Of a stretch of 21,599 bases of DNA, positions 2,850 to 13,445 are shown in pieces; position 1 is the first letter of the stretch; every line of letters begins with the position of its first letter. Made by a program: the position numbers and the translations under genes. This stretch comes from PVC group bacterium (GTDB lineage Bacteria; Auribacterota; Erginobacteria; Erginobacterales; Erginobacteraceae): assembly GCA_043804695.1 (NCBI GenBank), contig JAZDIV010000121.1, forward strand, positions 1-21,599. The letters run 5' to 3'. The notes under the pieces are model-generated. The model ran no database searches and was not told the DNA's origin. It worked only from the letters and a program-made list of their open reading frames with translations.

Positions 2850-3400
2850 TTGAGTGCTTTCTTTCATAATAAATGGCTTGATAATATTCCCGAACAAGAT
2901 AGGGAAGTAATAAAAAAACTTATAGTACGATTATTCCCAAAATTAGAAGCGATATTTGGAACAAGTCATTATGGCTTTAGTTGGGAGTCGACCTGGAGAA
3001 AGCAATTGAGAATATGTAGTCCCGATATTTTTCCTATCTTTTTCCGTTTGGGAGTCCCAAGAGGACAAATATCAAATATAGAAATGCAATCGGTTTTATC
3101 TCTGTCTGAAGACAGCAATGCGTTTGGCGATAAGTTGCTGGAGCTATCCAAACAACATCGTCCTGATGGTTCAACTCGGGTAAGTACTACTCTCGAGCGG
3201 ATGGAAGATTACACAGAAAAGGAAATTTCCAAGGAACATATTCCTAACATCCTGCAAGCTCTATTTAATGTGGGGGATCGATTGATAGTCCCGGAAGATG
3301 AAGGAAGGGGTTTTTTCTCGTGGGGTAATGATATGCGCATGGGGAGGCTGACGTTCCGATTATTGAAACGTTATGAAACAAAAGAAGATAGATATATTAA
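2850..3400 (+). pseudogene. C-terminal fragment of a KAP-family P-loop NTPase-like protein
   Basis: AT-rich island with a TTG start and no RBS. 'FHNKWL...RLFPKL...WRKQLRICSPDIFPIFFRLGVPRGQISNIE' resembles the C-terminal region of KAP NTPases; no Walker motifs are present. The ORF tail (to 3587) simply reads through a palindromic repeat. Confidence 0.55.
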
Positions 3401-3434
3401 TCCGACCGTTGTAGGATTTACATCAAGGGTCGCG

Positions 3435-3560
3435 GTCATTGCGAGCGTTAGCCGAAGCCGCGAGCAAAGCGTGGCGGGAAGCAATCTCTTGCTGTGCATA
3501 GAGTTGAGATTGCGTAGCCTGTCCCGAGCGATAGCGAAGGATCTCGCTCCTCGCAATGAC
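3435..3560. repeat. Nested palindromic REP/MITE-like element (GTCATTGCGAG...CTCGCAATGAC)
   Basis: Perfect 11-bp terminal inverted repeats at 3435-3445 and 3550-3560. Inner inverted pair GCAATCTC (3481-3488) / GAGATTGC (3506-3513). Confidence 0.85.
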
Positions 3561-3589
3561 ATGTCTATACAATTATGGACTGACTAATA

Positions 3590-3643: not shown

Positions 3644-4840
3644 ATGACAACCAGCAGTTATAAAAGCCCTGATCGGCGCCATCGAATTATCCGGCAGACG
3701 CTTCCCCTGATAGTGGTTGCCGCTCTGGCATTGACGGCGGGCTGCTCCAAAAAGCAGCCGCAGCAGGAGATCCCCCCCCGGCCGGTGAAAATCGCCGCGG
3801 CGATTGAGCAGGACATCCCCCTTTACATTGAAAATTTCGGGAACCTGGTCTCTCCCGACGACGTGAATATCGTCTCCCAGGTTACGGGCAAGATCCTGTC
3901 CGTTCATTTTAGGGAAGGAGATGAGGTGAAGAAGGGTGACCCCCTCTTCACCATCGATCCCCGGGAGTATCAGGCCGATCTTGACAAGAGCAAGGCATCC
4001 CTGGAAGCTTCCCGGGTCGACCTGAAGTTAAAGAATGAGACCTTCGAGCGGAACAAGCAGCTGATCGGGAAGAAGCTCATCTCCCAGCAGGATTATGATA
4101 CCTACCAGACTGACGCCGAGGGCGCCCGGGCCCAGGTGGCGCTCGATCAGGCTGCCGTCGAGCTGGCGGAGATCAATCTCGGGTACTGCTCCATCACCTC
4201 CCCGATCAACGGGGCCACCGGGAAGCGGCTGGTCGACCCCGGTAACGTCGTCGCCGCCAACAGCGGCACCGCGCTTGTTAACATAAAGTCGGTCGACCCT
4301 CTCTATGTCGATTTCACCATCCCCGAGAGCCGGTTCTCCTGGGTAAAAGAGGAGATGGCGAAGTCAACCCTGCAGGTCCAGATCTCGCCGGAGGGCGATA
4401 CGGGAGGCCCCTGCGACGGGACGCTGCAGCTGATCGATAATACCGTCGACCCGATGACCGGAACGGTGTCTCTCCGGGCCTCCGTTCCCAACCCGGACCG
4501 GAAGCTCTGGCCGGGGCAGTATGTGACCGTCAGGCTCATCGTCGCCAGCGCCCCGAATGCGGTCCTGGTCCCCGGCGCGGCCGTCCAGCTCGGTCCGAAG
4601 GGGGCGTACCTCTTTGTGGTCAAGGACGATAACACGGCGGAACTGCGGGACGACATCACGGTCGGACTGGCCGAGGAGGACTATGTCCAGATCAAGAAGG
4701 GCGTCAAAGTCGGGGAGAAAGTGGTGACCTACGGTCAGCTGGGCCTCGCCCCCGGCTCCAAAGTGCAGATCGTCGCGGATGATAGCAAGAAAGGGGGTAA
4801 AGAACAAACAACGCCGACATCCAAAAAGGGCGAGGAATGA
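3644..4840 (+). CDS. RND efflux periplasmic adaptor (membrane fusion protein, MdtA/AcrA-like), lipoprotein
   Basis: RBS GAGGAGG/AAGGA and lipobox 'LTAGC'. Motifs 'VSQVTGKILSVHFREGDEVKKGDPLFTIDPR', 'ITSPING...VDPGNVV', 'IDNTVDPMTGT' and 'LWPGQYV'. Confidence 0.93.
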   Translation: MTTSSYKSPDRRHRIIRQTLPLIVVAALALTAGCSKKQPQQEIPPRPVKIAAAIEQDIPLYIENFGNLVSPDDVNIVSQVTGKILSVHFREGDEVKKGDPLFTIDPREYQADLDKSKASLEASRVDLKLKNETFERNKQLIGKKLISQQDYDTYQTDAEGARAQVALDQAAVELAEINLGYCSITSPINGATGKRLVDPGNVVAANSGTALVNIKSVDPLYVDFTIPESRFSWVKEEMAKSTLQVQISPEGDTGGPCDGTLQLIDNTVDPMTGTVSLRASVPNPDRKLWPGQYVTVRLIVASAPNAVLVPGAAVQLGPKGAYLFVVKDDNTAELRDDITVGLAEEDYVQIKKGVKVGEKVVTYGQLGLAPGSKVQIVADDSKKGGKEQTTPTSKKGEE

Positions 4841-4842
4841 TA

Positions 4843-5444
4843 TTAAAAGACCGGGAATGGGTAAGGGTTACGATGCCCGTTTCGGTTAAGGTAAGGGTAA
4901 CGTGCGTTGTCAAAACATGCGTTGGTGCTTGAGTCTAACGTCATGAACAACCTGAATTTAAGGTTGCTATGATAGGGGCGCGAAAGATAACGAGTTTTCG
5001 GGATCTGGAGGTTTATCGAAATACATATCAGGCTATGCTCCTCGTCATGCGGGAGATTGTCCCGAAGTTGCCGGAGAAGGAAAAATATGATTTAACTGAC
5101 CAATCCAGCCGGGCTTGCAAAGCTATACCGCGGTTAATTGCCGAGGGGTACGCCAAGCGACACCAACGAGCGGGTTTTAAGAAGTATATCGATGATGCCA
5201 TGGCTGAATGCAACGAGATGATAGTCAATTTGTGCCAATGCAGGGATTTGTATGGCAAGTACATAGATACCGATAAATGCGAAACTTTGATCGACACCTA
5301 CGACAAATCAGGCAGACAGCTCTATAAACTAGGCCTGGCCTGGTCAAATTTCAAAATGCAAGGCTAATCATAGAGGCGTGAATCCGTAACCGTAACCGTC
5401 CACCGAAACGGGCTTCGTTACCGTTGCCCTGACCGAATTTAAAA
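4843..5444 (+). mobile_element. Candidate insertion element: inverted-repeat-flanked four-helix-bundle cassette
   Basis: Left arm ~4854-4902 and right arm ~5385-5434 are inverted, with a perfect core GCCCGTTTCGGT (4875-4886) / ACCGAAACGGGC (5402-5413). TTAAAA occurs at 4843-4848 and 5439-5444. The cassette separates adaptor and permease genes that are normally adjacent. Mobility is inferred. Confidence 0.6.
4969..5367 (+). CDS. Four helix bundle protein (23S rRNA intervening-sequence protein / TIGR02436-like)
   Basis: 132 aa with the family pattern 'SFRDLEVY...LPEKEKYDLTDQ..RA..AIPRLIAEGY.KR....F..Y...A..E..E'. More AT-rich than the flanking genes. Confidence 0.9.
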   Translation: MIGARKITSFRDLEVYRNTYQAMLLVMREIVPKLPEKEKYDLTDQSSRACKAIPRLIAEGYAKRHQRAGFKKYIDDAMAECNEMIVNLCQCRDLYGKYIDTDKCETLIDTYDKSGRQLYKLGLAWSNFKMQG

Positions 5445-8400
5445 TGGCCTTCTCGGAAAAATTTATCCGTCGCCCGATCATGACTATCCTGATCGTGGTG
5501 ACGCTTCTGCTGGGCGGCCTGGTCGCCTATACCCAGCTCCCGGTCAGCGATCTTCCCTCGGTCGATTACCCGGTGATCACCATCACGGCCACCTACCCGG
5601 GTGCCAGCCCGGAACTGATGGCTTCGTCCGTTGCTTCCCCCCTGGAAGACGAGTGCATGCAGATCCCGGGACTCCAGACCATCATCTCGGACAATCAAGC
5701 CGGGATAACGACCATCACCCTCAGTTTTGAACTGGACAAGAACGTTGACCTGGCCGCGCCCGATGTCCAGGCGGCGATCACTCGCGCCCAGGCCAATCTC
5801 CCGACTCTTCCCCAGCCGCCGACCTACGACAAGAACAACCCCGCCGACCAGCCGATCATCTATATCATGGTCGACTCCGAGACCATGACCGGCGGCGACC
5901 TCTATGACTATGCCCACAAGTCGATCGGACAGCGGATCAACATGATCGAGGGGATCTCCAAGGTCGACATCTACGGGGCCAAGCGGGCGATCCGGGTCCT
6001 GATCGATCCCGAGAAGCTGGCTTCTCTCGACCTCGGCCTGGACGAGGTCTATCAGGCGCTGAACAAGGGGACGGTGACCACCCCCGGCGGTGACCTGAAC
6101 GGGAAATACCGCACCTTCTCGATCTATCCGGAGGGTCAGTTGACCGAGCCGGAGCAGTACAAGGAACTGATCATCGCCTACCGGAACAACGCGCCCATCC
6201 GGGTCGGGGATGTAGGCAACGTGGTCGACAGCCTGGAGAGCGACGTGATCAACGTCATGTACGGGAATAAGGAGACCGGGATGAAGGCGGGCGCTGTCTG
6301 TATCGCCGCCACCCGGGCTTCCGGGGCCAATACCGTCGCTCTCTCCCGGGAGGTTCGGTCCCTGCTGAAAGAGATCAGGCCGACTCTCCCCGGGTCTCTC
6401 AACGGGAGGATCTTCTATGACAAGGCGATCCAGATCAAGGAGTCGATCAACGACGTGGAGACCACCATTCTCATCGCCCTGGTTCTGGTGGTTCTGATCA
6501 TCTTCCTTTTTTTGGGCCGGGTCTCCGATACCATGGTCCCGGCCGCCGTCCTCCCGGTGACACTCTTCGGCACCTTCCTGGTCATGATGTTCGCCGGGTT
6601 CAGTCTCGATAACCTTTCCCTGATGAGCCTCACTCTTTCGATCGGCTTCCTGGTCGATGACGCGATCGTTGTCCTGGAGAATACCGTTCGCCATATCCAG
6701 GCCGGTGAGAAACCGCTCTCCGCGGCCATCAAGAGTATGGAGGAGATCACCGGGACGGTCATCTCGACCAGCATCGCCCTGGTCGTGGTCTTCATTCCCC
6801 TGGTCTTCATGGCCGGCGTGGTGGGGAGGAACTTCAAGGAATTCGCCCTGACCGTCATCTTCGCCATCTCCGTCTCCACCGTCATTGCCCTGACGCTCTC
6901 CCCGATGATGTGCGCCCGGGTGTTGAAAGCGGGGAAAGCGAACAAGACCCGGCTGGAAAGATTTTCCGACCGGTTTATCGGGGGCATTATCAAAAATTAC
7001 GGCGTGGCTCTCAAATGGGTGCTGCAGCGCAAATACCTGACCATTCTGGGGGGTCTGGGTTGCCTGGCCGGGATCGTGTATTTCTTCGTCGCCCTCCCCA
7101 AGACCTTCATGCCGACCGGCGACAGCGGCTGCTTTTACGGGCAGTTCCAGGCGCTTCAGGGGGCCTCGACGGGACAGATCCGCCATTTCCAGGACCGGGT
7201 CAACGAGATCATCACCGCCAATCCCGCGGTTGAAAACCTCCTCACGGTCACCGGGAAACAGACCGGCGCCGACCAGAGCACCGGCATCGTCGTCTCCACC
7301 CTCAAACCGACCGGCGAACGGGAACCGATCGAGCAGGTGGTCGAGGAACTTAACCGGGCCCTTTACTCGATTTCCGATCTGGGGATGGTTTTTCTGATGC
7401 CGCTCCCCTCGCTGATCCTGAGTACCGGGGCGGAGAGTACCGCCACGGGAAGCCAGTATTCTTATGTTCTCTCCGGCCAGGATATGGACCAGGTCTACCA
7501 GGCAGCAGCGGAGATGGAGCAGCGGATGCGACAGCTGCCGTATTTTTCCGGCATTCAGACCAGCGTCAAGGTGAACCTTCCCCAGTTGAATATCGACCTT
7601 AAACGCGATCGGGCCTCGGCCCTGGGCATCGCGGCGGCGGATATCGAGGATGCTCTCGCCCTGGCTTACGCCAAGGGGAAAACCGCCACCTATCTGACCG
7701 ATATCGATCAGTACTGGGTGATCATGGAGGCCGAGGATAAAGACCGGCAGATTCCCAGTGATCTCTCCAAGATCTATGTCCGCTCGCCACAGACCGGCAA
7801 GCTGGTACCTCTGAGTTCGGTCGCCGATTGGATTCCGACGGTTGCTCCCCAGAATGTCCCCCACCACAATCAGCTCAATGCCGCCACGCTCTCCTACAAC
7901 CTGGCCCCCGGCGTCCCTCTCGGCGACGCCACCAAGGCCCTCAATCAGCTGGCCCGGGAGATCCTTCCTCCCGCCGTCGGCGGCGTGATGCAGGGGCAGG
8001 CCCAGGAGTTCGAGGAGGCGATCCAGAGCCTGGTGGTGCTGATGATAGTGGCCGTCTTCATCATGTACGTCATCCTGGGGATCCTCTATGAGAGCTATAT
8101 TCATCCCTTTACGGTCTTGACCACTCTCCCCCCCGCCGCTTTCGGGGGACTCCTCACTCTCTATATCTTCGGCTCGGAACTCTCCCTGTATGCCTATATT
8201 GGGATGTTCATGCTGCTGGGAATTGTTTCCAAGAACGGGATCATGATGGTCGACTTCGCCAAGCAGTACATGGAGGAGGGGCAGAACGCCTTCGACGCCA
8301 TCTACAATTCCTGCATTGTCCGGTTCCGCCCGATCCTGATGACCGGTGCTTCGACCATCATGGGGACACTCCCGATCGCGATCGGCCTGGGTGCGGACGC

Positions 8401-8608
8401 CTCCGCCCGCCGTCCCCTGGGATTGCTGATCGTCGGCGGCCTGGCCTTCGCCCAGGTGATTACCCTCTTCATCACCCCGGGACTCTTCCTCTACATGCAG
8501 GCTTTCCAGGAGAAGGTCCTCGACCGCTTCGAGCTGACCCGCTCCGACGCCTGCCGCCTGAAGATGGCGGCCGCGGAGGCGGGTCCCGCTCCGGAACCAC
8601 CCAGGTAA
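5444..8608 (+). CDS. RND efflux permease (AcrB/MdtB/MdtC-like, HAE1 family)
   Basis: 1054 aa. 'FIRRPI', 'YPGASPE', proton-relay 'VDDAIVVLEN', 'KNGIMMVDFA' and 'RFRPILMT'. Confidence 0.96.
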   Translation: MAFSEKFIRRPIMTILIVVTLLLGGLVAYTQLPVSDLPSVDYPVITITATYPGASPELMASSVASPLEDECMQIPGLQTIISDNQAGITTITLSFELDKNVDLAAPDVQAAITRAQANLPTLPQPPTYDKNNPADQPIIYIMVDSETMTGGDLYDYAHKSIGQRINMIEGISKVDIYGAKRAIRVLIDPEKLASLDLGLDEVYQALNKGTVTTPGGDLNGKYRTFSIYPEGQLTEPEQYKELIIAYRNNAPIRVGDVGNVVDSLESDVINVMYGNKETGMKAGAVCIAATRASGANTVALSREVRSLLKEIRPTLPGSLNGRIFYDKAIQIKESINDVETTILIALVLVVLIIFLFLGRVSDTMVPAAVLPVTLFGTFLVMMFAGFSLDNLSLMSLTLSIGFLVDDAIVVLENTVRHIQAGEKPLSAAIKSMEEITGTVISTSIALVVVFIPLVFMAGVVGRNFKEFALTVIFAISVSTVIALTLSPMMCARVLKAGKANKTRLERFSDRFIGGIIKNYGVALKWVLQRKYLTILGGLGCLAGIVYFFVALPKTFMPTGDSGCFYGQFQALQGASTGQIRHFQDRVNEIITANPAVENLLTVTGKQTGADQSTGIVVSTLKPTGEREPIEQVVEELNRALYSISDLGMVFLMPLPSLILSTGAESTATGSQYSYVLSGQDMDQVYQAAAEMEQRMRQLPYFSGIQTSVKVNLPQLNIDLKRDRASALGIAAADIEDALALAYAKGKTATYLTDIDQYWVIMEAEDKDRQIPSDLSKIYVRSPQTGKLVPLSSVADWIPTVAPQNVPHHNQLNAATLSYNLAPGVPLGDATKALNQLAREILPPAVGGVMQGQAQEFEEAIQSLVVLMIVAVFIMYVILGILYESYIHPFTVLTTLPPAAFGGLLTLYIFGSELSLYAYIGMFMLLGIVSKNGIMMVDFAKQYMEEGQNAFDAIYNSCIVRFRPILMTGASTIMGTLPIAIGLGADASARRPLGLLIVGGLAFAQVITLFITPGLFLYMQAFQEKVLDRFELTRSDACRLKMAAAEAGPAPEPPR

Positions 8609-13267: not shown

Positions 13268-13288
13268 TTGCTTCGGAATTTCAAAAAC

Positions 13289-13405
13289 GGTAACGGCAAG
13301 GGTAACGAAGCCCGTATCGGTGAGGGGAACGGTAACGGCTGCCTCGCTGGGCGCACGTAACCGTAACCGGCAGACGAAACGGGCCTCGTTACCGTAGCCG
13401 TAACC
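13289..13405. mobile_element. Empty (gene-less) copy of the four-helix-bundle cassette arms, MITE-like
   Basis: By hand count, left arm 13289-13337 matches 4854-4902 at 38/49 ungapped and right arm 13356-13405 matches 5385-5434 at 42/50 ungapped. The spacer is only 18 nt. Confidence 0.75.
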
Positions 13406-13445
13406 AGTTGCGAACGAAGTGAGCTAACTAAAGGGAGTGCTTAAG

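Follow-up and report, generated by a model that had tools for sequence, protein, structure and literature searches.

In the stretch of DNA analyzed here (21,599 nucleotides; referred to as the window), a four-helix-bundle gene situated between an RND adaptor gene and an RND permease gene is enclosed by two inverted arms, and the motif carried by these arms belongs to the clade of the 132-aa protein that the gene encodes. Across homologous loci, two residues of this protein, D109 and K113, covary with the last base of the short units of which the motif is built, which suggests that the protein recognizes the ends of its own mobile cassette. The features of the locus are as follows.

3644..4840, + strand: RND periplasmic adaptor gene, the upstream host flank (TIGR01730, 279.8 bits; ORF list)
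4859..4902, + strand: left arm, C-type, with the 21-nt clade motif (4865-4885) embedded in GGTNA(C/G) hexamers (matrix score, 32.0)
4943..4972, + strand: short upstream ORF of 9 codons, with its TGA overlapping the four-helix gene's ATG (read from the sequence)
4969..5367, + strand: four-helix-bundle gene, 132 aa, PF05635/TIGR02436 (profiles, predicted fold, and codon-position identity)
5293..5307, + strand: codons of D109 (5293-5295) and K113 (5305-5307), candidate specificity residues at i/i+4 in the last helix
5385..5437, - strand: right arm, with the inverted copy of the motif at 5403-5423 (matrix score, 34.0)
5444..8608, + strand: RND permease gene, the downstream host flank (Pfam and NCBIfam profile matches)

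The position of the 132-aa gene between adaptor and permease is as the earlier note had described it, and the gene is indeed more AT-rich than its neighbors, with a GC content of 0.461 against 0.602 in both. The adaptor-permease junction was recovered in 13 of the 40 relatives searched. In these 13, the two genes are separated by -4 to 260 nt, compared with 603 nt in the window, and the four-helix gene is absent from the junction in every case, so that none of them keeps the gene here without arms. The empty sites that the note had hoped to find in relatives were thus recovered as junctions lacking the gene, but not as a nucleotide-precise empty allele, because the spacers of the 13 relatives are too diverged. 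Furthermore, the window has no counterpart of the A/T-rich leader hairpin found ahead of the permease start in 7 of 8 family relatives, and several relatives possess other repeats at the junction. Only 2 of the 40 relatives yielded a close homolog of the four-helix gene, and not at this junction. These comparisons support the interpretation of gene plus arms as an insertion at the RND junction. Just upstream of the RND adaptor, the window also contains an AT-rich 245-aa ORF (2850-3587) without a Pfam or NCBIfam match, which has the look of a foreign fragment.

Profile searches bore out the family assignment proposed for the 132-aa protein, which passes the cut-offs of both PF05635 (62.6 bits; cut-off, 33.8) and TIGR02436 (52 bits; cut-off, 24). 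A structure model (pLDDT, 92) shows four helices and the same fold as Avd (PDB 4DWL and 8UB7) and the pentamers Xcc0516 (2GSC) and BT_0352 (2RLD); the nearest structure is 2GSC (TM-score, 0.77), followed by 2RLD (0.69) and Avd (0.62-0.69), and sequence identity to Avd is 10-15%. By analogy with its five-chain relatives 2GSC and 2RLD, the window protein probably forms a pentameric ring. Identity to five relatives at first, second, and third codon positions is about 0.8, 0.85, and 0.4, respectively; third positions are therefore saturated while first and second positions are conserved, indicating that the protein has been maintained and, on this codon pattern, that purifying selection acts on the gene. 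The protein shows no evident catalytic motif, no nuclease family was matched among the Pfam and NCBIfam profiles, and no relatives were found in viral contigs. PF05635 proteins are widespread, and a 2024 preprint continues to describe them as lacking a characterized function (bioRxiv 10.1101/2024.02.27.582315). The 9-codon ORF at 4943..4972 may possibly couple translation to that of the four-helix gene.

Both inverted arms, of roughly 50 bp, and their perfect 12-bp core (4875-4886/5402-5413) are present as previously described, although the hexamers, earlier given as GGTAAS-like, are more accurately GGTNA(C/G), the fourth letter being variable. The right arm stops 6 nt before the permease ATG. 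The number of outer hexamers differs among homologs, as judged by eye, and fixed ends were not seen; the left arm of most relatives stops immediately ahead of the start codon. Nor are the arms confined to this locus, since 39 further copies without the gene are present in the genome, one of them inside the window.

To place the arms in the context of the protein clade, species genomes were scanned for relatives of the 132-aa protein. Of the 132 relatives obtained, the best 80, which span 19 named phyla and include 16 unassigned records, were kept as 79 loci (60-77% identity). A matrix trained solely on the gene-less arms of the source genome, applied at a threshold score of at least 10, detected the motif upstream of the gene at 63/79 loci and inverted downstream at 63/79 loci. 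Both arms are present at 56/79 homologous loci across the 19 named phyla, which supports an association of the arms with this protein clade, a co-occurrence that the earlier note had proposed to test. Control distal windows reached the threshold in 11/1133 and 9/1133 cases, and the motif was detected in the wrong orientations at 12 and 10 of the 79 loci. The seven other PF05635 matches of the source genome do not exceed an arm matrix score of 5.7. Five of these seven (L001, L002, L003, L005, and L006, on contigs C101, C27, C143, C83, and C120) are each boxed by inverted heptamer arrays of their own, built from GGGAATG, ATCAGTA, TGTAAAG, AAATCCT, and GACGAAT, respectively; the gene on C120 has an internal stop.

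By rough ORF calling, the 80 loci fall between 67 distinct pairs of neighboring genes, mostly on the same strand, with median distances of 22 nt between the upstream stop codon and the left motif and of 30 nt between the right motif and the start codon that follows. The clade is patchy, occurring in 8/301, 3/301, 6/401, and 1/25 genomes of four phylum samples, each count including the center genome, and in 3/41 genomes of the relatives set. Hairpins were found at 22/79 homologous loci. In some phyla (L063, L064, L099, L110, and L128), complete hairpins stand on both sides of the gene, in a hairpin-gene-hairpin arrangement comparable to that of RAYT genes between REP doublets. It is from distribution only that we infer movement of the cassette; no mobilizing enzyme is known for it, and its sole gene is the PF05635 gene.

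The 21-nt motif is composed of short units whose last bases lie at positions 7, 14, and 19; these bases are C in most loci (C-type) and not C in others (non-C). Both arms switch between the two states together (Fisher P values of 1e-6 to 1e-8; 60 distinct pairs). All protein columns were scanned for residues separating C-type from non-C loci. D109 together with K113 was found in 55/56 C-type loci and 0/22 non-C loci, with two intermediate loci, both D+K, left out of the 80, and with motif classes and residues chosen from the same 80 loci. Conversely, 22/22 loci with non-C units lack D109+K113. The best residue pair that does not use position 109 or 113 misplaces 16/78 loci. The same relationship extends to hexamers outside the scored core, which end in C in 94/191 cases at C-type loci versus 0/97 at non-C loci. 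The tree shows 7 changes in the motif and 8 in the joint state.

A fresh set of 24 loci, from which 6 identical ones were dropped, was then scored with site finding blind to positions 7, 14, and 19. Arms were called in 13 of the 18 loci, and 3 of the 5 loci without a call are D+K. Nine D+K loci have C-type arms, three non-D+K loci have non-C arms, and one D+K locus is intermediate; hence 12 of the 13 scorable loci fit the D109/K113 link (P value of 0.005 for the 12). A cause at the nucleotide level was rejected, since both synonymous codons are in use at position 109 as well as at position 113. Host CpG or GC content as the driver of the motif switch was likewise rejected (rho of -0.006 and 0.14).

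The covariation might reflect shared ancestry only, with a D109/K113 salt bridge lost in lineages whose repeats drifted to purine ends. The i/i+4 spacing of the two residues on one helix is what a salt bridge would require, and most non-C loci lie in one 21-row part of the tree. The tree was built by a quick search in which 10/77 inner branches are starred, and the test of independent pairs is not significant and cannot become so, because this weak tree leaves only one independent pair on starred branches. However, switches also occur outside the 21-row part (L042, L043, L094, and L105), C-type D+K loci occur inside it (L068, L072, and L096), two new non-C loci (L174 and L186) have C-type nearest relatives, and no other residue pair comes close. 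We therefore consider shared ancestry a very improbable explanation.

The earlier note had pictured the arms as a long stem in RNA or single-stranded DNA. Part of this picture stands: the predicted RNA duplex between the arms of the window reaches -62.8 kcal/mol against -34.3 ± 4.5 kcal/mol for shuffles, none of 500 being as good, and it is stronger on the sense strand than on the other (-62.8 versus -51.3 kcal/mol). The stem is, however, periodically mismatched, folding of the whole 616-nt region gives a z score of only -1.82 (20 shuffles), and an excess of compensatory changes was not found. Observed Watson-Crick pairing between the arms at variable positions is not above chance expectation in any comparison (5 observed/7.0 expected, 6/6.8, and 9/9.7; further counts, 19/22.5, 17/20.3, and 22/25.0). 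Selection on a base-paired stem is thus not supported, and agreement at or below chance, both at the unit-ending and at the wobble positions, means that the joint switching of the two arms is not stem compensation. The absence of compensation favors two separate sites. Mismatches of the G·U type outnumber those of the A·C type (40 versus 23; P value of 0.04, the loci not being independent), and the sense strand has an A bias (64% versus 55%); this mild excess and the bias lean toward RNA as the form in which the arms may be read.

These results bear on the possibility that the cassette is an mRNA version of the rRNA intervening sequences (IVS), in which the stem of the arms would be cut by RNase III or would loop the gene out, with the protein as a passenger. 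The stable predicted duplex, its sense-strand preference, and the G·U excess are all in line with this, and a precedent exists in Coxiella burnetii, where RNase III cleaves the 28-bp stem of an IVS that contains a member of this gene family, its ORF being reported to decay (PMC4990558). A passenger protein, on the other hand, is not expected to covary with the sequence of the arms, and the pairing counts above run against a selected stem. Furthermore, searches with PF00636 and PF14622 detected RNase III in none of five family genomes (G000, G001, G002, G005, and G006; control, 8/14), which are incomplete, three of them being 95-97% complete. This makes IVS-style excision unlikely here, including rRNA-style loop excision of the cassette, and we regard the mRNA reading as a whole as improbable.

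Instead, joint switching of the arms without compensation points to direct reading by an Avd-like ring. A single amino acid state setting every unit in both arms is expected from a ring of identical subunits. For Avd itself, a cis RNA stem-loop is reported to be contacted by all five protomers, each of which uses the same residues to read bases flipped out of the stem (bioRxiv 10.1101/2023.10.23.563531). The covariation opens PF05635 to a first concrete test, as it names a candidate ligand, the arm motif, and predicts that two specified residues, if exchanged, would switch the specificity. In the literature searched, which consisted largely of open-access main texts, no description of the gene-plus-arms layout or of the residue-base link was found; the main text of a report on TAACTGA repeats (PMC4679880) does not mention the PF05635 family.

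The source genome contains 40 motif-bearing elements, and only one of these, the window cassette, encloses the gene. The others comprise 34 gene-less arm pairs, 31 of which have an identical 55-nt core gap, and 5 partial copies. One of the 39 lies in the window, between two short modules.

13268..13284, + strand: module A of the gene-less copy, an IS91-type oriIS-like end
13288..13405, + strand: gene-less two-arm copy with an 18-nt loop
13406..13431, + strand: module B, a short palindrome ending in a target-like tetranucleotide, a terIS-like end

This copy is absent at the same junction in G001 and G004, and five distinct hairpin sites of G001 whose junctions could be aligned have no hairpin in the source genome. 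For the region 13268-13445 of the window, the matching G001 junction (C33:19903-20024) holds an A-like end, behind which lies another hairpin payload; this may represent either a shared hot spot or an exchange of payload. Among the gene-less copies with two called neighbors, 33/36 lie between same-strand genes (background, 905/1218; P value of 0.009), and the frame is oriented along transcription in 26/31 copies (P value of 0.0002).

At least one frame module accompanies 37/39 gene-less copies, and both modules accompany 24/39. Genome-wide, module B follows within 300 nt of 127 of 250 A motifs, compared with 88/3000 random windows, corresponding to about 127 IS91-type mini-elements in the source genome (G000), with varied palindromic payloads and head-to-tail stacking. 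The payloads between A and B are many and include the arms of another four-helix gene; the TGTAAAG arms mentioned above occur gene-less inside A-B frames as well. Read in reverse, module A has the geometry AAATTCC + 7 nt + GAAC/CAAG seen in annotated IS91-family ori ends. GTTC or CTTG, the published targets of IS91, which has as its ter end a palindrome adjoining a tetranucleotide of this type (PMC13181058), precedes module A at 49/167 sites, against 0.7% of genome 4-mers, although TTTA is commoner still (32). Miniature forms of IS801 have also been described (PMC3189936).

A truncated IS91-family transposase gene (L131; C70:20692-21123), followed by an ori-like end and GAAC, is the only Y2 hit in the assembly, which is 88% complete and in which no intact cognate transposase was found. 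An attempt to tie module A to intact cognate transposases did not succeed: 26 homologs at metagenome loci are only 30-52% identical, a loose ori-like match is present in 3 of the 21 examined, and distant homologs (35-47%) do not share this exact end. Because the metagenome homologs are so distant, the link between module A and IS91 rests on annotated IS91-family plasmid copies and the one truncated gene. In G001, integrase-IS91 transposase pairs on C16, C20, and C21 are unlike the elements of the host and are possibly contamination (8% is listed for G001).

Six gene-less copies (on C10, C48 [two copies], C77, C88, and C149 of G000) lie in reverse orientation within their A-B frame, which points to either a flip across the arms or a second round of capture. 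A CCCCGAT..ATCGGGG palindrome is inserted in the arm core at the same position in two copies of G000 (C48:41262 and C106:56548) and three of G001 (L113, L119, and L126). The scar aligns about equally well to the cassette in either orientation (54+68 versus 41+65).

The window cassette itself has neither an A nor a B module, and within 500 nt of the 79 gene loci only one A-like match, a weak one, was detected; IS91-type ends around gene-bearing cassettes were therefore rejected. The local amplification is best explained by carriage between IS91-type ends and not by an activity of the four-helix gene, so that the source genome would show how such arrays multiply once a gene-less scar is captured. 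Of the claim that the unit is selfish or mobile, insertion is upheld, and the 67 neighbor pairs among 80 loci place the unit in many unrelated gene junctions; autonomy is not supported, the gene-less copies riding between IS91-type ends.

In another phylum, the picture differs. An ori-like end was found at 0/30 motif loci, the scars are all different (median inter-core identity, 0.60 in G292 versus 0.80 in the source genome), and, as judged by eye, they are flush with gene borders, at times keeping bits of the ends of the four-helix gene. Diverse, flush, and ori-less scars are expected if whole cassettes were inserted and then lost their gene. In the sample of this phylum, 11 of 13 motif-bearing genomes lack the clade gene (overlap, 2; P value of 0.03), and gene-less hairpins in such genomes argue against their dependence on the gene.

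Several of these observations could be accommodated by a more passive role, in which the protein binds the arms solely for translational self-control or to prevent the insert from harming the operon, while unrelated vehicles (IS91-type minis, mini-transposons, integrons, or recombination) do the moving and the ends later decay. The IS91-type framing of the amplified copies with their many payloads, the position of the left arm just before the start codon in most relatives, and the persistence of hairpins in genomes without the gene would all fit. Self-repression, however, needs no conserved inverted right arm, the gene-bearing cassettes lack the A/B module, and the ori-less, diverse scars of the other phylum fit repeated insertion of the whole cassette. 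We consider this reading unlikely, although far from negligible.

Collectively, with somewhat better than even confidence, we favor a selfish cassette: its product would assemble into a ring, bind the ends of the cassette, and help it to move by means of borrowed enzymes. The 0.6-kb unit would be promoter-less and consist of one four-helix gene and two inverted binding sites for its own product. Each subunit of the ring would read one short unit of an arm using the same residues, such that a single D109/K113 change would alter the terminal base of all units in the two arms. Binding would mark the cassette ends and assist transfer to new gene junctions and hosts, with mobilization by borrowed enzymes of the host or of other elements. 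Cassettes landing between a stop codon and the start codon that follows would persist, transcribed by read-through. The gene would often be deleted, leaving hairpin scars, and in the source genome, IS91-type ends would have captured one such scar, giving rise to about 39 copies. More tentatively, the "23S-IVS protein" family could be the recognition subunit of an undescribed class of enzyme-less mobile elements, with a pentameric ring that reads the short repeated units at the cassette ends through a programmable code (D109/K113 selecting C), host machinery recruited for insertion at gene junctions, and, left behind, the hexamer and heptamer hairpin arrays found in many bacterial intergenic regions; we hold this to be possible but rather doubtful. 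If the covariation holds, the PF05635 family would be a sequence-reading ring with a simple code, and IVS elements, the Avd proteins of retroelements, and unexplained intergenic repeat arrays would become linked.

Among known systems, the 23S rRNA IVS resembles the cassette in carrying a PF05635 protein within terminal inverted repeats able to form a stem (PMC4990558), and also in being sporadic and horizontally acquired, with ORF-less beside ORF-bearing forms (PMC4990558; for insertions in CPR rRNA, bioRxiv 10.1101/2024.02.27.582315). Unlike the IVS, the cassette sits between protein-coding genes, the RND adaptor and permease, and not in an rRNA gene; its arms consist of a repeated clade-specific motif, its host family has no RNase III match, and its gene is under purifying selection, whereas decay is reported for the Coxiella IVS ORF (PMC4990558). 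In contrast to DGR/Avd systems, no reverse transcriptase lies beside the gene. The sole RVT_1 match of the genome (C23:30881-31513; 149 bits) has no long repeat pair within about 5 kb, and a reverse transcriptase partner is not supported, being present in 3/5 genomes and absent from the G292 listing despite 23 motif matches there. The IS91 family shares with the gene-less copies the ori-like end geometry, the GTTC/CTTG target, and the ter-like palindrome (PMC13181058; PMC3189936), but these copies are units of ~190 bp with a captured hairpin as payload, in a genome with only a truncated transposase gene. The window cassette, having no recognized transposase gene or ends, also falls outside the classical definition of an IS or MITE. 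In RAYT/REP/REPIN systems, likewise, cognate palindromes flank a single gene and gene-less doublets are scattered through intergenic DNA, but the RAYT is an HUH (Y1) nuclease (PMC3337134; PMC8266576), whereas the window protein is an all-helical bundle without a nuclease-family match. The cassette is thus RAYT-REPIN-like in layout and IVS-like in anatomy, while failing the defining features of both.
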